This document shows, one piece after another, positions 1,382 through 63,465 of a stretch of DNA of 64,000 nt. This stretch comes from Shigella phage ESh31, in the sequence record ON528741; one strand, 5' to 3'. The notes under the pieces are model-generated. The model searched no databases, had not been told where the DNA came from, and saw nothing but the letters and a program-made list of their open reading frames with translations. A program made the translations under genes and the position numbers. Position 1 is the stretch's first letter, and each line of letters starts with the position of its first letter.

Positions 1382-1582
1382 ATGACTACTTTGAATAAAC
1401 GTTTCGGTAAAGCTAAATCTGGTTGTGCAGCTGAACGTCGTTATGTTTTCGCTCAGTTAGAAGATGTAGAGTATCAGATTAATCAAGTTCATATTACTGG
1501 TATCGAGCCTATGTGTGGCCTTGAAGCTCTTCGTGAAGTTCGTGACGGGTATCGTCGTGACATCGAAGAAATGTCAAAATAA
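1382..1582 (+). CDS. hypothetical small protein (66 aa)
   Basis: ORF with GGAG Shine-Dalgarno 7 nt upstream of the ATG. Confidence 0.4.
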   Translation: MTTLNKRFGKAKSGCAAERRYVFAQLEDVEYQINQVHITGIEPMCGLEALREVRDGYRRDIEEMSK

Positions 1583-1639
1583 GTATACAAACTGATAGGA
1601 TTATGTTATAGTAGTCCTATCAAATCAAAGGAGAATAAA

Positions 1640-2608
1640 ATGAAAACTGTAACTATCAATAAGGGTATCTACTTTGGCAAAGAAATCTCTGGAACTTTTG
1701 AACTCTTAGGTGAGTGGTTCCCTGATAATGCTCCAGTAGATGCACAGGGAGATGGTAAAGTTTTTGTTGAAATTGACGGTAAGCGTCGCGGTGTTTGGGT
1801 TTACAAATCAGACATTTCATATGATGGTGTAAAAGTTGAAGAAGTTAAAGAATCGTATGAAGATATGAAAACCCGCATTAATAAAAGATTTAATGTTATG
1901 GGAATGATGACGAATGGTATTATTAACGGAAACATTCGTTCATTAATTATCTCGGGAGCAGCAGGTATTGGTAAAACGTATTCTTTAGATAAAGCTTTAA
2001 ATAAAGCAAATGATATTGGATACATTGAATATAAAAGCATTAATGGTAAAATCTCTGGTATCGGTCTTTATGAACAGCTTTGGAATAATCGTGAAGAGAA
2101 TTCTGTCCTTTTGATTGATGATGTGGATGTTTTCTCTGATATGGACATTCTTAATCTTCTGAAAGCTGCTCTGGACACTGGAGAGACCCGTAAAGTCTGC
2201 TGGAGCACCGCATCTTCTTACTTAGAAGAAAAAGGCATTGAGCGTGAGTTTGAATTTAAAGGAACGATTGTTTTTATCACAAACGTTGACATTGACCGCG
2301 AATTAGACCGTGGTACTAAACTTGCTCCACATTTACAAGCATTAGTGTCCCGCTCAGTTTATTTGGATTTGGGTGTTCACACTAATGAAGAAATTATGGT
2401 CAGGGTTGAAGATGTTATTCTTTCAACTGACATGATGCAAAAGCGCGGTCTTTCTGATGAAGAAACTTATAAAGCATTATCATGGATGAAAGTCAATGTT
2501 AATCGTTTACGCAATGTTTCACTACGTACTGCGCTTTATCTTGCTGACTTTATTATGACCGACAAAAACGGTTGGGAAGAAATCGCTGAGGTTACTCTTC
2601 TGAAATAA
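1640..2608 (+). CDS. P-loop (AAA-like) ATPase (T4 nrdC.10-position ORF)
   Basis: 322 aa; Walker A GAAGIGKT, Walker B LLIDDVD, sensor-like FITNV; AAGGAG RBS. Confidence 0.55.
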   Translation: MKTVTINKGIYFGKEISGTFELLGEWFPDNAPVDAQGDGKVFVEIDGKRRGVWVYKSDISYDGVKVEEVKESYEDMKTRINKRFNVMGMMTNGIINGNIRSLIISGAAGIGKTYSLDKALNKANDIGYIEYKSINGKISGIGLYEQLWNNREENSVLLIDDVDVFSDMDILNLLKAALDTGETRKVCWSTASSYLEEKGIEREFEFKGTIVFITNVDIDRELDRGTKLAPHLQALVSRSVYLDLGVHTNEEIMVRVEDVILSTDMMQKRGLSDEETYKALSWMKVNVNRLRNVSLRTALYLADFIMTDKNGWEEIAEVTLLK

Positions 2609-3655: not shown

Positions 3656-4063
3656 ATGAAACAGTTGATAATTAAAAGATTGAATTTATTGATATGTTGT
3701 TTATGCGTAGTAGTTGCATATGGTTATTATGCTATTAATGATTATATGCATTATAAAGATTATGATGTTACTGTAGTTAATACCTTTACAGGAACTCAAG
3801 GAAAGGGGTCTAGTTTATCGTTTATTGCCGTATATGAACTAAATGACGGTTATAGATTTAGCGAATATATTTCACCGGAGATGTATTCTTCAATAGAAAA
3901 AGGTGATAATATTACTGTAAGTTTACGTCCTTTCGACGTAAAACAGACATTGTTTGATAATATTGTTTGGTTCTTTGGAATGGTATTAGTTCAATCTGTG
4001 TGTGGTGCTTATATAGTCTTTTCCATCTTATTCTGTATATTTAGTAAAATTGAAATTGAGTGA
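3656..4063 (+). CDS. hypothetical membrane protein
   Basis: 135 aa; hydrophobic N- and C-terminal segments. Confidence 0.4.
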   Translation: MKQLIIKRLNLLICCLCVVVAYGYYAINDYMHYKDYDVTVVNTFTGTQGKGSSLSFIAVYELNDGYRFSEYISPEMYSSIEKGDNITVSLRPFDVKQTLFDNIVWFFGMVLVQSVCGAYIVFSILFCIFSKIEIE

Positions 4064-10254: not shown

Positions 10255-10265
10255 AAATAATAAAT

Positions 10266-10295: not shown

Positions 10296-10769
10296 ATGTT
10301 ATTGACTGGCAAATTATATAAAGAAGAAAAACAGAAATTTTATGATGCACAAAACGGTAAATGCTTAATTTGCCAACGAGAACTAAATCCTGATGTTCAA
10401 GCTAATCACCTTGACCATGACCATGAATTAAATGGACCAAAAGCAGGAAAGGTACGTGGATTGCTTTGTAATCTCTGCAATGCCGCAGAAGGTCAAATGA
10501 AGTATAAATTTAATCGTTCTGGCTTAAAGGGACAAGGTGTTGATTATCTTGAATGGTTAGAAAATTTACTTACTTATTTAAAATCCGATTACACCCAAAA
10601 TAATATTCACCCTAACTTTGTTGGAGATAAATCAAAGGAATTTTCTCGTTTAGGAAAAGAGGAAATGATGGCTGAGATGCTTCAAAGAGGATTTGAATAT
10701 AATGAATCTGACACCAAAACACAATTAATAGCTTCATTTAAGAAGCAGCTTAGAAAGAGTTTAAAATGA
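10296..10769 (+). CDS. 49: endonuclease VII (Holliday junction resolvase)
   Basis: 157 aa; near-identical to T4 gp49 as I recall it (MLLTGKLYKEEKQKFYDAQNGKCLICQ...); Cys-rich zinc site. Confidence 0.85.
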   Translation: MLLTGKLYKEEKQKFYDAQNGKCLICQRELNPDVQANHLDHDHELNGPKAGKVRGLLCNLCNAAEGQMKYKFNRSGLKGQGVDYLEWLENLLTYLKSDYTQNNIHPNFVGDKSKEFSRLGKEEMMAEMLQRGFEYNESDTKTQLIASFKKQLRKSLK

Positions 10770-13990: not shown

Positions 13991-14087
13991 GATGGGCCCT
14001 CTGGGCCTTTCTTTCTTACATTCTGTATATTACCATTCTAAGCTATCGTTCCTTTCTTATCATTCCCTGAAATATTTTTCACAAAGT

Positions 14088-14148
14088 TGTTTACAACAAG
14101 TTCAAACCGTGGTATTATTAACATATGAATTACCTTTGAGGAATTGAT
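14088..14148 (+). promoter_or_regulatory. early promoter (GTTTAC / GTGGTATTATTA)
   Basis: GTTTAC -35 and CCGTGGTATTATTA -10 region upstream of the ORF at 14149. Confidence 0.45.
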
Positions 14149-14331
14149 ATGGTTATGGTTGATAAAGAAATTAAAAAGGGACAGTATTATCTCATTAATG
14201 GTAATGCTGTTCGTGTTACTCATGTAAATAGTTTTGAAGTTTGCTATATTATACTCAAGTTACATAAACGCATGATTTGCGATCGTGCTGCATTTAGTTC
14301 AGTTGCTAAGGAAATTAAACTCCATGGGTAA
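14149..14331 (+). CDS. hypothetical small protein (60 aa)
   Basis: GAGG RBS. Confidence 0.35.
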   Translation: MVMVDKEIKKGQYYLINGNAVRVTHVNSFEVCYIILKLHKRMICDRAAFSSVAKEIKLHG

Positions 14332-17392: not shown

Positions 17393-18595
17393 ATGAAAGT
17401 ATGTATTTTTATGGCTCGAGGTCTTGAAGGTTGTGGTGTAACAAAATTCTCACTCGAGCAACGTGATTGGTTTATTAAAAATGGTCATGAAGTAACTTTG
17501 GTTTATGCTAAAGATAAATCATTTACTCGTAATTGCGCGCATGATTATAAATCATTTTCAATTCCGGTTTTATTGGCAAAAGAATACGATAAAACACTTA
17601 AGCTGGTAAATGATTGTGATATTCTAATTATCAATTCAGTTCCTGCTACTTCGGTTGAAGAAGACACTATTAATAACTATAAAAAAATTATTGATAACAT
17701 TAAACCTTCTGTTCGTGTTGTAGTTTATCAGCATGACCATTCTTCTCTTTCTTTGCGTCGAAATTTGGGATTAGAAGAAACTGTTCGTCGAGCTGATGTT
17801 ATTTTTAGCCATTCTGATAATGGTGATTTTAATAAAGTTCTGATGAAAGAATGGTATCCTGAAACAGTTTCTCTGTTTGATGATATTGAAGAAGCACCGA
17901 CCGTATATAACTTTCAGCCTCCTATGGATATTGCGAAAGTTCGATCAACCTATTGGAAAGATGTTTCTGAAATTAATATGAATATCAACCGTTGGATTGG
18001 TCGTACGACTACATGGAAAGGTTTTTATCAGATGTTTGATTTTCACGAAAAACATCTTAAACCTGCAGGACTAAGTACTATTATGGAAGGTCTGGAACGT
18101 TCTCCAGCGTTCATTCCTATTAAAGAAAAAGGAATTCCATACGAGTATTATCGTCTTCATCAAGTAGACCAAATTAAAATTGCTCCTAATTTGCCAACGC
18201 AAATTCTTGACCGTTATGTAAATAGCGAAATGCTTGAACGCATGAGTAAATCCGGATTTGGTTATCAACTGAGTAAGTTGGACAAAAAATATTTACAACG
18301 TTCTTTAGAATATACTCATCTCGAGCTTGGTGCATGTGGAACAATTCCGGTATTTTGGAAATCTACTGGCGAAAATTTAAAATTCCGTGTTGATAATACT
18401 CCTTTGACCTCGCATGATAGCGGTATCATTTGGTTTGATGAAAATGATATGGAATCAACATTTGAACGTATTAAAGAACTGTCATCTGACCGAGCTCTTT
18501 ATGACCGTGAGCGAGAAAAAGCATATGAATTTTTGTATCAGCATCAAGATTCAAGCTTCTGCTTTAAAGAACAGTTTGACATTATTACAAAATAA
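17393..18595 (+). CDS. agt: DNA alpha-glucosyltransferase
   Basis: 400 aa; near-identical to T4 alpha-gt as I recall it; AAGAGG RBS; flanked by UUCG hairpins. Confidence 0.9.
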   Translation: MKVCIFMARGLEGCGVTKFSLEQRDWFIKNGHEVTLVYAKDKSFTRNCAHDYKSFSIPVLLAKEYDKTLKLVNDCDILIINSVPATSVEEDTINNYKKIIDNIKPSVRVVVYQHDHSSLSLRRNLGLEETVRRADVIFSHSDNGDFNKVLMKEWYPETVSLFDDIEEAPTVYNFQPPMDIAKVRSTYWKDVSEINMNINRWIGRTTTWKGFYQMFDFHEKHLKPAGLSTIMEGLERSPAFIPIKEKGIPYEYYRLHQVDQIKIAPNLPTQILDRYVNSEMLERMSKSGFGYQLSKLDKKYLQRSLEYTHLELGACGTIPVFWKSTGENLKFRVDNTPLTSHDSGIIWFDENDMESTFERIKELSSDRALYDREREKAYEFLYQHQDSSFCFKEQFDIITK

Positions 18596-36172: not shown

Positions 36173-36529
36173 ATGTATAGTTCTGAATTTTCATATTTAA
36201 AAATGGAAAAAATTTCATACGATTTTATAGATGAAAAGGTTTATTACAGTTTCCATGAACCACGTTTTAATAGTGAGGTTGGGTTTATTGTAGTAAAAGA
36301 CAATTTCATTTTAAAGATATATTCGGCATTAAAGGATTTTCACTACGAAAATATTAACCTAAAATTTAATAAAGAAAACGTTCGTAATTGCGCAGTAACA
36401 ATTACAGGAAATAAAGGTACATGTGTTATGCTATCCGATGAAATTAATGATTTGCTAAATGATGCAGAAAAAGTTGCTATTCCATCGATTGATGACCAAA
36501 TTTTTAATGCTTTTATGAATAGAGGTTAA
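36173..36529 (+). CDS. hypothetical protein (118 aa) with conserved C-terminal tail
   Basis: Ends in SIDDQIFNAFMNRG; the last ~45 nt are a near copy of the end of the preceding ORF. Confidence 0.45.
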   Translation: MYSSEFSYLKMEKISYDFIDEKVYYSFHEPRFNSEVGFIVVKDNFILKIYSALKDFHYENINLKFNKENVRNCAVTITGNKGTCVMLSDEINDLLNDAEKVAIPSIDDQIFNAFMNRG

Positions 36530-36697: not shown

Positions 36698-37726
36698 ATG
36701 TCATCAATACCTTGGATTGATAATGAGTTTGCATATCGTGCATTGGCTCATTTACCTAAATTCACACAAGTAAATAATAGTTCAACTTTTAAATTACGTT
36801 TTAGATGCCCTGTTTGTGGAGATTCAAAAACCGACCAGAATAAAGCCCGTGGATGGTATTATGGTGATAATAATGAAGGAAATATTCATTGTTATAACTG
36901 TAACTATCATGCACCAATCGGAATATATTTAAAGGAGTTTGAACCTGATTTATATCGTGAGTATATCTTTGAAATAAGAAAAGAAAAAGGTAAAAGTCGT
37001 CCAGTAGAAAAACCTAAAGAACTTCCTAAACAACTTGAGAAGAAAATAATTAAATCTCTTCCGTCATGTGTTAGATTAGATAAACTGGCGGAAGACCATC
37101 CAATTATAAAATATGTAAAAGCTCGTTGTATTCCAAAGGATAAATGGAAATATCTTTGGTTTACAACCGAATGGCCTAAATTAGTTAATAGCATAGCACC
37201 AGGAACATACAAAAAGGAAATTTCTGAGCCTCGTCTTGTTATTCCAATTTATAATGCTAATGGAAAAGCTGAGTCTTTTCAAGGACGTGCATTAAAGAAA
37301 GATGCTCCCCAAAAATATATCACCATCAAAGCTTATCCTGAAGCAACAAAAATCTATGGAGTCGAACGAGTTAAAGATGGTGATGTATATGTTCTAGAAG
37401 GACCTATAGATTCACTTTTTATTGAAAATGGTATAGCTATTACGGGTGGTCAATTAGACCTAGAAGTTGTTCCATTTAAAGATAGACGAGTGTGGGTTTT
37501 AGATAATGAACCTCGTCACCCTGACACTATCAAACGAATGACTAAATTAGTTGATGCAGGAGAAAGGGTTATGTTTTGGGATAAATCTCCCTGGAAATCA
37601 AAAGATGTCAATGATATGATTAGAAAGGAAGGTGCAACCCCTGAACAAATTATGGAATATATGAAAAATAATATTGCCCAGGGGTTGATGGCTAAAATGC
37701 GGCTATCTAAATATGCCAAGATTTAA
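36698..37726 (+). CDS. 61: DNA primase gp61
   Basis: 342 aa; N-terminal zinc ribbon CPVCGDS...CYNC; TOPRIM-like region. Confidence 0.9.
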   Translation: MSSIPWIDNEFAYRALAHLPKFTQVNNSSTFKLRFRCPVCGDSKTDQNKARGWYYGDNNEGNIHCYNCNYHAPIGIYLKEFEPDLYREYIFEIRKEKGKSRPVEKPKELPKQLEKKIIKSLPSCVRLDKLAEDHPIIKYVKARCIPKDKWKYLWFTTEWPKLVNSIAPGTYKKEISEPRLVIPIYNANGKAESFQGRALKKDAPQKYITIKAYPEATKIYGVERVKDGDVYVLEGPIDSLFIENGIAITGGQLDLEVVPFKDRRVWVLDNEPRHPDTIKRMTKLVDAGERVMFWDKSPWKSKDVNDMIRKEGATPEQIMEYMKNNIAQGLMAKMRLSKYAKI

Positions 37727-37923
37727 ATTAACCCAACTAAAGCAAATGCTAGATCTACGAATGTATCAAGAGTAACTACTGGAATATTAACACCATGCGC
37801 AATTGCAATTGGTGATAAAATAAAGTTCCAGAGTAAAATTCCTACCATAGCAGAAATAGTAAAAGCTATACGTTTTTTATTACCTTTTATGGCATTAACA
37901 AGTGCCATTAATTTTTGTACCAT
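37723..37923 (-). CDS. antisense-oriented small membrane protein (66 aa)
   Basis: Minus-strand ORF with AAGGAGG RBS 4 nt before the ATG; two predicted transmembrane helices; sits in the 61-56 intergenic gap. Confidence 0.5.
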   Translation of the reverse strand: MVQKLMALVNAIKGNKKRIAFTISAMVGILLWNFILSPIAIAHGVNIPVVTLDTFVDLAFALVGLI

Positions 37924-37994
37924 ATATCCTCCTTATTGCTTTATATATTTATTGTATAATTAATCTACTAACCCATGAATTGAAAGGAAAAATA

Positions 37995-38513
37995 ATGGCT
38001 TACTTTAACGAATGTTCACAACTGATTGAAGGCGCTGATAAAGCTCAAAATGAATATTGGGATATTCTCGGTGATGAAAAAGACCCGCTGCAGGTAATGC
38101 TTGACATGCAGAAATCTCTGCAGATTCGTTTAGCTAAAGATAAACCTGAATATAATCGTCATCCTGATGACTTGGCTACTGCCGGTGAAGTTGTTGATTG
38201 GTTGCGTAATCAGAAAGATTATATTGACGATGAATTCCGTGAACTTCTGACTTCTCTTGGTGGTATGAGTAATGGTGAAAAAGACGCATCTGCTGTATGG
38301 AAACCTTGGAAGTCGCAGCATGGTGAACGTCGTGAAACTCTGATTACTGATTTGTCTCCACAAGACCAGTTAGAAATTAAATTTGAAATGATTGATATTC
38401 TTCATTTCGTTCTGAATATGTTCCAGGGTCTTGGTCTTACAGCAGAAGAAATCTTTAAACTTTATTATCTGAAAAATGCCGAGAACTTTGCTCGTCAGGA
38501 CCGAGGTTATTAA
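37995..38513 (+). CDS. 56: dCTPase-dUTPase gp56
   Basis: 172 aa from the internal Met (MAYFNECSQLIEGADKAQNEYWDILGDEKDPLQ...). Confidence 0.85.
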   Translation: MAYFNECSQLIEGADKAQNEYWDILGDEKDPLQVMLDMQKSLQIRLAKDKPEYNRHPDDLATAGEVVDWLRNQKDYIDDEFRELLTSLGGMSNGEKDASAVWKPWKSQHGERRETLITDLSPQDQLEIKFEMIDILHFVLNMFQGLGLTAEEIFKLYYLKNAENFARQDRGY

Positions 38514-39129: not shown

Positions 39130-39470
39130 TGTTTATCTTTAATTGGTTTAAAAGTTTCTTTACGGATTTTTTCTCTACAACTCCCGGAGAAGGTGTAGTT
39201 CCTATTTCAAATGACTACCTCCCTTTAACTGTAGTTGAATATGTTTATATGGGAGATGGAACAGTAGAAGCAGTTACTATGACTTATGAAGAAGCCCAGG
39301 AATATTATAAAAATCCTTGGCGCTGGTCAACACCTACTACATCATCTAATGCACAGAATACACAGTCTAGTTATGATTCATATGACACCAATGTTCCTGT
39401 TCATGTATGGGCAGGTGATTCATGTGGAAGTTCTTGTGATTCTAGCTGTTCATCTACATCTTGTGATTGA
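39129..39470 (+). CDS. hypothetical protein with Ser/Cys-rich C-terminus
   Basis: 113 aa; C-terminal [18 protein letters not shown]. Confidence 0.4.
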
Positions 39471-39478
39471 GGAAAATT

Positions 39479-39964
39479 ATGGAAGCGATTTTGTTTGAAA
39501 TGTATATTAGCAGTAATAGCATGTCGTTTGCTAAAGATGTTCCAATTACTGTAGCCGTAGTGATTGATAAGGGTTATTGTAACCCTATGTATCTCGTAGA
39601 AAATTTCGTTTCAATGCCAGTTCCAGAAGATGTTGAAATAAAACTTAAAAAGATCGGAATTATTGAAACTGTGCCAAATAGTCCGTTTAGAGCAATTGAA
39701 GCATTTACTAAATCCGAATACATTAATGTTAGCGCAGAACAATATAATGGTAATCCTTTATCTTTTTATTCGTACGATTCAGTATATGACTGGAAAATAA
39801 ATGAAGGAAATAAATTTATAATTGCGAGTGAAGATGCTTTATCATACTTTATTTATTATGTATGGAATAATTTAAATCCAAAATTGCTAAAAATTCATGA
39901 ATTTGACGATGCTCCTACTATTGTTTTAGGTAAAACAAATGAAAGTTCTGAAGAAAATGCTTGA
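39479..39964 (+). CDS. mrh: Mrh-like protein (161 aa)
   Basis: Start at the internal Met after GAGGAAAAT; length and position (soc side of modA/modB) match T4 mrh. Confidence 0.4.
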
Positions 39965-60558: not shown

Positions 60559-60568
60559 GGAATAAATA

Positions 60569-62808: not shown

Positions 62809-63465
62809 TTATTTAGCCCTTCCTAATATTCTGGCCGCCTGAGCACATATTGATTCAAGGCGGTCATTACTTATATGATCATTTCTATACCAGTACATGG
62901 TTATCGTTCCAGCATAGATATTATCCAAATTAAAATATGGACAACTGTACATGTAGTTTATTTCGGGAGTAGGCTTTTTAGTTGGTAAAAAAGCAAATTT
63001 TGAGTTGGAATAATAATGACGTCCATTTAAATGAACTGTATATTCATCCATAGTTTTATCAACAGGATATCCTCCAAGTGATTTTTCAGTTATTGTTGAA
63101 GGTAATCTTCCTTCATATGCTATAATATCAACAAAATAGTTTAAGTTTTTAGGGCGGAAAGAATATACCGCACTAAAGTCTGCCTCAGATGATATATGAA
63201 CTATCTGGAGTTGTTCCAGGGCGACAGATTCAAAGCGTGCATTTCTTTCCTTTTCAATAATTTCACTGTATGTTTCATACTTTGATTGCTTATAGTACTC
63301 AAAGAAACTATCTCCCCTATACCAAACAATCGCCATTATAAACAAAAGAATTACGACAGCTACCCGGGAAGCAAGAACCTTCCCGGTAGCGTTATCTTTG
63401 AACAAGCGATCTAGAACACCCAACAGAATATCAGAGGGCGAAAATGATATTCTAGGTGCTGCCAT
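62809..63465 (-). CDS. t: holin T
   Basis: 218 aa on the minus strand; near-identical to T4 holin T; AAGGAGGG RBS. Confidence 0.9.
   Translation of the reverse strand: MAAPRISFSPSDILLGVLDRLFKDNATGKVLASRVAVVILLFIMAIVWYRGDSFFEYYKQSKYETYSEIIEKERNARFESVALEQLQIVHISSEADFSAVYSFRPKNLNYFVDIIAYEGRLPSTITEKSLGGYPVDKTMDEYTVHLNGRHYYSNSKFAFLPTKKPTPEINYMYSCPYFNLDNIYAGTITMYWYRNDHISNDRLESICAQAARILGRAK

Follow-up and report, generated by a model that had tools for sequence, protein, structure and literature searches.

A small and probably late-expressed membrane protein gene that converges on the primase gene of Shigella phage ESh31 and other T4-like phages

Short proteins named RB32ORF030w, RB69ORF029w, VR7ORF033w and ar1_033 in different T4-like phages belong to a single protein family, phrog_2024, and their genes occupy the same genomic position. 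The T4 late genes t, 49 and soc are each preceded by an (A/T)ATAAATA core that lies shortly before a strong Shine-Dalgarno (SD) sequence and the ATG. Here we describe an open reading frame (ORF) of 66 codons on the minus strand of Shigella phage ESh31, between the primase gene 61 and gene 56, in a stretch of 64,000 nucleotides (nt) of sequence record ON528741 that is referred to below as the window. The ORF is a member of phrog_2024, and like the T4 late genes it follows an (A/T)ATAAATA core, a strong SD and an ATG. It resembles the holin gene t in that it is encoded opposite to the early genes and has an A at position -13 of its core. We consider it likely that the ORF encodes a real, late-expressed protein with a single membrane span. 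The object itself is not new, as it is already catalogued in GenBank and PHROGs, though uncharacterised; what is added here is the evidence for a late promoter, synteny throughout a family with two subfamilies, a correction to one membrane span, and the omission of the gene from the T4 annotation. The gene and the elements directly upstream of it are as follows.

37723..37923, minus strand: 66-codon ORF for a small membrane protein (phrog_2024; RB32ORF030w orthologue), with ATG at 37921-37923 and TAA at 37723-37725
37928..37935, minus strand: SD sequence TAAGGAGG, in which AAGGAGG is 37928-37934, with a 4-nt spacer (ATAT) to the ATG
37946..37953, minus strand: late-promoter core AATAAATA (that is, TATAAATA with A at -13), ending 22 nt before the ATG

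A sequence-only reading of the window had proposed a minus-strand ORF of 66 codons with AAGGAGG 4 nt from its ATG, converging on gene 61 and ending against its stop codon. Both proposals are borne out, and the stop codons of the ORF (37723-37725) and of gene 61 (37724-37726) in fact overlap within the palindrome TTTAAA. By itself, an ORF of 66 codons is unremarkable in AT-rich DNA, and the case for a gene therefore rests on comparative evidence. In a translated search of 50,697 phage records the ORF was found in 692, and the frame is intact and full-length in 686 of these, so that the stops or frameshifts in relatives that had been named as grounds for doubt are not what is seen. The same reading had suggested a comparison of conservation and substitution rates across relatives, and its outcome agrees with a gene: when synonymous and non-synonymous differences were summed within a genus, the ratio of non-synonymous to synonymous polymorphism (pN/pS) in Tequatrovirus was 0.14 in the frame of the ORF, the lowest of the six frames. 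Variable sites in this genus are distributed 6/2/12 over codon positions 1/2/3, and second codon positions are the least variable in the sense frame of three genera (2, 0 and 4 sites). An AGGAG-type SD is kept upstream of the ATG in all orthologues inspected, and residues M1, W32, N33, P38, G44 and P48 are invariant across both subfamilies of the protein. It is the full-length frame in 686 of 692 records, the pN/pS of 0.14, the conserved SD and the presence of homologues in seven genera that lift the ORF above chance. A 67-amino acid antisense ORF at 37516..37719, inside gene 61, showed no family match. Judged by sequence comparison, then, the 66-codon ORF is a real protein-coding gene of T4-like phages that is under purifying selection and syntenic across genera.

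The ORF region is 97-99% identical to that of other Tequatrovirus genomes, such as EPIMRB01, AR1, wV7 and RB51. Residues 2-66 of the protein match positions 1-65 of the 65-position phrog_2024 profile (E=1.5e-31), and 11 of 11 diverse homologues tested, drawn from both subfamilies, match this profile as well. The gene is annotated in RB51 as 'RB32ORF030w hypothetical protein, similar to RB69ORF029w' and in AR1 as ar1_033; RB69ORF029w and VR7ORF033w are further catalogue names, and hundreds of relatives list a 'hypothetical protein'. Proteins identical to that of the window have already been deposited, for example ACP30950.1 of RB51. The T4 reference (NC_000866, AF158101) contains an intact copy at 17738..17938 that is not annotated and whose protein is 97% identical; it sits in a 309-bp gap that runs from dam to gene 61 (3739..3939 of the T4 locus extracted for comparison, L002). 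The record of T2 (LC348380) likewise lacks an annotation of the ORF, while at least one newer T4 record, OZ209023.1, does annotate it, as a hypothetical protein. The exact T4 protein sequence was found in raw-read assemblies only and is not among NCBI proteins. Searches of the literature on the locus names, on T4 ribosome profiling, on unannotated ORFs and on the mapping of T4 start sites found no description of the ORF.

Homologues are present in seven genera of the Tevenvirinae: Tequatrovirus, Mosigvirus, Gaprivervirus, Dhakavirus, Jiaodavirus, Kanagawavirus and Gelderlandvirus. Identity to the window protein is 90-100% in Tequatrovirus, approximately 55% in Mosigvirus and 44-52% in Gaprivervirus. 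When the Dhakavirus copy was used as the query, a second subfamily (B) emerged; it is represented in Dhakavirus, Jiaodavirus, Kanagawavirus and Gelderlandvirus, and in Gaprivervirus it provides the second of two tandem copies. Identity between subfamilies A and B is down to 20-31%. Throughout the family the proteins are 62-74 residues in length, and in every carrier genome inspected the gene is opposite in strand to the primase gene and converges on it. Tandem paralogues, one from each subfamily, were seen in Gaprivervirus VR25 (L024, 1295..1492 and 1501..1701) and in ESCO47 (P0077, P0184). The second paralogue of VR25 starts 8 nt past the stop of the first, which suggests that the two probably form one late operon. 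In Karamvirus Pet-CM3-4, Serratia phage 92A1 and Pseudotevenvirus GAP161 the primase gene is not followed by a copy. In the record of TH40 (L004), which is marked UNVERIFIED, the B copy is disrupted.

Transcription of the ORF late in infection is suggested by its polarity, by the late-promoter core upstream, and by the conservation of this core amid surroundings that are not conserved. The core, which the sequence-only reading did not mention, is the main clue to the timing. All early and middle transcripts of T4 run on the strand opposite to that of the ORF (PMC2988020), and in the window too the ORF is opposite to all early and middle genes, on the clockwise strand, a polarity that fits late transcription only. 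The motif ATAAATA is approximately six-fold depleted in the window, with 6 copies on both strands against 38.5 +/- 6 expected from dinucleotide-preserving shuffles. The six sites are at 10260, 37946, 38545, 39850, 60562 and 63484, and four of them lie 18-30 nt upstream of an SD and ATG, belonging to gene 49 (10296..10769), soc, holin t and the ORF. The holin t core in the window is AATAAATA, the same A(-13) variant as that of the ORF, and gene 49 also has A at this position. PMC2988020 lists 50 T4 late promoters, 9 of which have this variant, and the -13 position, a T in the consensus, is poorly conserved among T4-like phages (PMC1524935). A T4 dRNA-seq preprint (GSE255091) gives 150 T4 start sites, 22 of them antisense.

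In all seven genera examined the late core ends 12-22 nt before the ATG, and within Tequatrovirus it is retained in three different upstream contexts, between which the ATAAATA core and the SD are the only conserved upstream elements. The cores found in the different contexts are listed here.

This window and RB51: aATAAATA
T4, where the upstream neighbour is dam: gATAAATA
fPS-65-like phages, with a further gene between: gATAAATA
Mosigvirus: aATAAATA
Gaprivervirus: cATAAATA
Dhakavirus: aATAAATA
Jiaodavirus, two copies: gATAAATA and cATAAATA
Kanagawavirus: TATAAATA, perfect
Gelderlandvirus (SEA1): ATTAAATA

The core of IME523 is a perfect TATAAATA. With the motif occupying -13 to -6, the predicted start of transcription is near 37940, which leaves a leader of 17 nt. 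The ORF is thus probably transcribed late in infection. RNA polymerase with gp55, gp33 and gp45 would start at AATAAATA, approximately 17 nt before the ATG, after the onset of replication, and since the leader is short and the SD near-perfect, the message should be well translated.

The ATAAATA core alone is nearly diagnostic of late promoters in this genome. The copy at 60562..60568 on the plus strand is formed by the stop codon of motA and the start of the next gene (…TAA ATA ATG), so that it is forced by coding and incidental. Another AATAAATA core, at 39850..39856 on the minus strand, lies antisense inside an early gene, the mrh-like gene at 39467..39964 on the plus strand, with neither an ORF nor an SD downstream of it, and may be either an orphan antisense late promoter or a chance survivor.

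The protein has a firm transmembrane (TM) helix at residues 19-42 (Kyte-Doolittle 1.8-2.0). This is preceded by an amphipathic and basic stretch, residues 1-18, which includes K4, K13, K16, K17 and R18, while D53 and D57 are the only charged residues after the TM helix. It thus shows the single hydrophobic helix of approximately 20 residues and the positive-inside charges of small inner-membrane proteins. Digestion with trypsin in silico yields one hydrophobic peptide of 48 residues, so that proteomics based on trypsin would probably miss the protein. An AlphaFold2 model made from an alignment of 27 sequences (mean predicted local distance difference test score, 78) has helices at residues 2-14, 16-42 and 52-63, the last of only 12 residues, and a loop at 43-51. 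The sequence-only reading had predicted two TM helices; the one at residues 19-42 stands, but the second is marginal. Residues 47-66 are hydrophobic (Kyte-Doolittle 1.86), yet they contain D53, D57 and P48 and no basic residue, their summed apparent insertion energy is +6.5 kcal/mol, and the corresponding C-terminal stretch of subfamily B is not hydrophobic (…TMEHVLSIIGFFSGVPV). Across the family we infer one membrane span, with the N-terminus inside and a short periplasmic or interfacial tail, as opposed to a two-span hairpin. By the positive-inside rule the basic N-terminus should stay in the cytoplasm; the last 24 or so residues would then be periplasmic and consist of a loop and a short, acidic, amphipathic helix that may rest on the surface of the membrane or re-enter it. 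Residues W32, N33, P38, G44 and P48 (W-N-x4-P-x5-G-x3-P) are concentrated in the outer half of the span and where it leaves the membrane on the periplasmic side, and this clustering suggests a binding surface for another component of the envelope.

The surroundings of the ORF on the plus strand are made up of the following features.

36698..37726, plus strand: gene 61 (DNA primase), the convergent neighbour, whose stop codon overlaps that of the 66-codon ORF
37889..37918, plus strand: terminator-like hairpin ATGGCATT-AACA-AGTGCCAT followed by TAATTTTTGT, downstream of gene 61 and within codons 6-12 of the ORF
37934..37960, plus strand: middle-promoter-like site of gene 56, with the MotA box TATTGCTTTA at 37934-37943, an 11-nt spacer and TATAAT at 37955-37960
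37995..38513, plus strand: gene 56 (dCTPase/dUTPase), the divergent neighbour

The stem-loop of the hairpin (37889-37908) has a folding energy of -8.9 kcal/mol (z = -2.3), and a terminator is annotated at the equivalent place downstream of gene 61 in fPS-65. The hairpin is restricted to Tequatrovirus; nothing comparable was found in the Mosigvirus or Dhakavirus orthologues, and the fold seen in Gaprivervirus is not terminator-like. Because the hairpin is located at the 5' end of the ORF, early or middle RNA that reads through from gene 61 would be antisense to almost the whole ORF. The earlier description of the ORF as antisense is therefore apt for this read-through RNA, which would cover the ORF up to 37889-37908, but not for the genes themselves, as the ORF overlaps any other gene by at most 3 nt. 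In the other direction, no minus-strand terminator for the ORF transcript was found in 37300-37723, the end of gene 61, and late ORF RNA would be expected to run antisense into that gene. A GC-rich hairpin lies between the ORF and the primase gene in Jiaodavirus.

The site upstream of gene 56 agrees well with the consensus of MotA-dependent middle promoters. At the equivalent place fPS-65 has a 'predicted middle promoter' in its annotation, and according to the T4 record the oriA primer RNA is the gene 56 transcript. In the window the late core of the ORF sits on the opposite strand within the spacer of this middle promoter, and the predicted late and middle starts are divergent and approximately 27 bp apart. 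An interleaving of the two promoters had been read from the sequence, and it holds for this window; it is not conserved beyond this lineage, though, since the ORF and gene 56 are separated by dam (780 bp) in T4 and by two genes in fPS-65-like phages, and in Mosigvirus, Gaprivervirus and Dhakavirus the late core is upstream of the MotA box or overlaps it and is not in the spacer. The interleaving of promoter and terminator reads as a consequence of tight packing.

With respect to the strand, the statement that the ORF is the only minus-strand gene of the window besides t and 38 is essentially right. The minus strand carries holin t (62809..63465), the end of gene 38 (63496 onward), the ORF itself, and one addition, a 61-amino acid ORF at 14038..14223 that is included on the strength of a family match only. 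This last ORF lies in the gap after an nrdH-like gene, and over its last 28 residues it matches phrog_13445, a profile of 28 residues (E=3e-21), which indicates that relatives annotate a mini-ORF there. On the plus strand, a 118-amino acid ORF at 36173..36529 shares a C-terminal motif (…IPSIDDQIFNAFMN) with the 61.2-like ORF that precedes it. It corresponds to RB32ORF033c, 'similar to gp61.2', and appears as a local partial duplication that T4 lacks.

Other explanations of the locus have to be weighed against a late membrane protein. The frame could be open for reasons other than a gene of its own, either because the region is a conserved regulatory spacer with the gene 61 terminator and the gene 56 promoter or because gene 61 extends into it by read-through, and the omission of the ORF from the T4 reference might be taken in this sense. 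The frame in phase with gene 61 is indeed open for approximately 77 codons past the TAA (37724..~37960) in Tequatrovirus and Mosigvirus, and its pN/pS is also low (0.23, and tied at 0.22 in Mosigvirus). The low ratio arises, however, because the third codon positions of this frame coincide with those of the ORF frame, and the openness because a hydrophobic ORF contains almost no Tyr, His or Gln codons. The gene 61-phase frame has no start of its own, is interrupted by a stop in one Tequatrovirus locus (L009), and is approximately 35% identical between genera (counted by eye from translations) as against 55% for the sense frame. The extension of gene 61 was rejected on the grounds of this stop, the lower conservation and the codon composition. 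As for a regulatory spacer, the ATG, SD and length are kept in seven genera, yet the terminator hairpin is confined to Tequatrovirus, and the Gaprivervirus A copy is not next to the primase gene; we give almost no credence to the ORF not being a gene. It is also conceivable that RNA is the key product and the ORF secondary, with late antisense transcription into gene 61 and occlusion of the oriA-type middle promoter of gene 56 shutting off primase expression or origin priming. The overlapping stops, the lack of a minus-strand terminator in 37300-37723, the late core inside the middle-promoter spacer with starts approximately 27 bp apart and the gene 61 terminator hairpin inside the ORF are all compatible with this, and in T4 there are sites known to be transcribed on both strands, at different times (PMC2988020). 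The constraint acts at the level of the protein, however, as seen in the pN/pS of 0.14, in the conserved length and strong SD, and in residues that are invariant down to 20-25% identity. Moreover, the promoter overlap is lost where dam or two genes intervene (T4, fPS-65) and the core is positioned differently in Mosigvirus, Gaprivervirus and Dhakavirus, while in Jiaodavirus the GC-rich hairpin separates the ORF from the primase gene. An effect of the RNA as the main product is thus improbable, but it could be a side effect additional to the protein in this lineage.

If the protein is the product, it might instead be made early or midway through infection, for example to exclude superinfecting phage in the manner of Imm or Sp. 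Proteins with this function are small and are found in the membrane or the periplasm, and the ORF encodes a small envelope protein in an early-gene region near sp. There is, however, no conserved sigma-70-like or MotA-type site upstream of the ORF on the minus strand (a consensus scan of that strand found no sigma-70-type promoter), and no homology was detected beyond the family of the ORF itself, so that early or middle expression seems extremely unlikely. The remaining alternative is that the protein acts as a holin or pinholin, piercing the membrane with lethal holes late in infection and thereby timing lysis. The protein is small and hydrophobic and has a late-type promoter like that of holin t, and two orthologues carry such a label, 'Holin' in UniRef (phage OE5505) and 'putative holin' in KP1079. 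Structural comparison with BFVD also returned matches named holin, but these were weak (E > 7) and not significant. No holin family of Pfam or NCBIfam was matched, and PHROGs places the family in the category 'unknown function' and not in lysis. Holins typically end in a charged hydrophilic tail; the C-terminus here is hydrophobic and has no such tail, and the second hydrophobic segment is marginal and lacks a hydrophobic counterpart in subfamily B. The protein thus has neither two or more TM segments nor one TM segment with a large periplasmic domain, nor the charged C-terminus. The phage already encodes a T4-type holin T at 62809..63465, and we know of no classical rapid-lysis locus between genes 56 and 61. 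A holin or pinholin is therefore very unlikely, and the 'holin' labels on orthologues are unsupported.

A late-expressed, single-span membrane protein remains the reading that we prefer, and several points weigh against it. The Gaprivervirus A copy shows a weaker pN/pS (0.50). In T4 and several relatives the core begins with G or C and not with T or A; in the T4 copy this base is G, a rarer deviation. The motif of Gelderlandvirus SEA1, ATTAAATA, is two mismatches off the consensus. Finally, neither a partner nor a role was identified, with no significant match in Pfam, NCBIfam, PADLOC or the Protein Data Bank (PDB). The sole match in PADLOC (E=0.044) was that of one homologue to an unrelated restriction enzyme model, and no PDB sequence scored below E=0.2 in a profile search. 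Searching 1.84 billion representatives with phmmer returned the family itself only, and the only significant match of the AlphaFold2 model in BFVD was the protein's own orthologue, followed by two 63-amino acid proteins of T4-like phages at E 0.2-0.7 that are probably distant members of the family. The long repetitive proteins P0032, P0036 and P0037 were rejected as homologues, their scores being spurious sums of many weak repeat matches.

A late membrane protein of this kind would be a non-essential modulator of the envelope of the infected cell, and would most likely act by binding another envelope protein, in the inner membrane or the periplasm, late in infection, either helix-to-helix or next to the membrane. 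Candidate roles include the fine-tuning of lysis and protection against host defences that act on membranes or against superinfecting phage, whereas a pore-former acting alone is less likely. To our knowledge, the interval between genes 56 and 61 of T4 contains no mapped locus that is essential or that gives rapid lysis, which argues for a non-essential accessory role under laboratory conditions. Tandem paralogues and the divergence of subfamilies A and B (20-31% identity) would be in keeping with an accessory role in the envelope that is adapted to hosts or to competitors. More specifically, the gene may encode an overlooked late envelope protein that binds the TM helix of holin T or another membrane protein and so tunes lysis, or that neutralises a defence or a superinfecting phage; in phages such as this one its late promoter might in addition compete with the oriA-type middle promoter in front of gene 56 and give rise to RNA that runs antisense through the primase gene. 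We put this forward as a proposal of low probability, and any one particular role, taken singly, is unlikely to be the right one.

T4 is the reference organism of its phage family and its annotation is widely reused. As the gene is absent from NC_000866 and AF158101, it will be overlooked in counts of reads or peptides that are made over annotated genes only. Should it indeed be late and located in the membrane, it would be one more envelope protein of the final phase of T4 infection, along with T, RI, RIII and the spanins. The compact layout of the locus in this phage provides a natural example of transcription that is partitioned by strand and by time. The result is a useful fix to the annotation and does not overturn current understanding.

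Among characterised proteins, the ORF product is like the holins and pinholins, such as lambda S, S21-68 of phage 21 and T4 T, in being a small inner-membrane protein of a phage that is probably expressed late. It differs from them in that it shares no homology with them, has one firm TM segment and not two or three, and does not have the large periplasmic domain of T. A second likeness is to the antiholin RI and to Imm and Sp, which are short bitopic or periplasmic proteins that are non-essential and bind components of the envelope; sp is also found in the same block of genes. The genes for RI, Imm and Sp are on the other strand, with expression that is either early or both early and late, and general searches with the ORF product showed no similarity outside its own family, no direct comparison with RI, Imm and Sp having been made. 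The type I toxins Ldr, Hok and TisB are likewise small hydrophobic peptides with an mRNA that is covered by an antisense transcript. Only 1 of 11 members of the family gave a Pfam match to Ldr, however, and this was not significant (E=0.1); in contrast to these toxins the ORF appears to be a late gene of a phage, with no evidence of a dedicated antitoxin RNA. The closest parallels thus remain RB32ORF030w and its relatives for the protein, and t, gene 49 and soc for the sequence in front of it.

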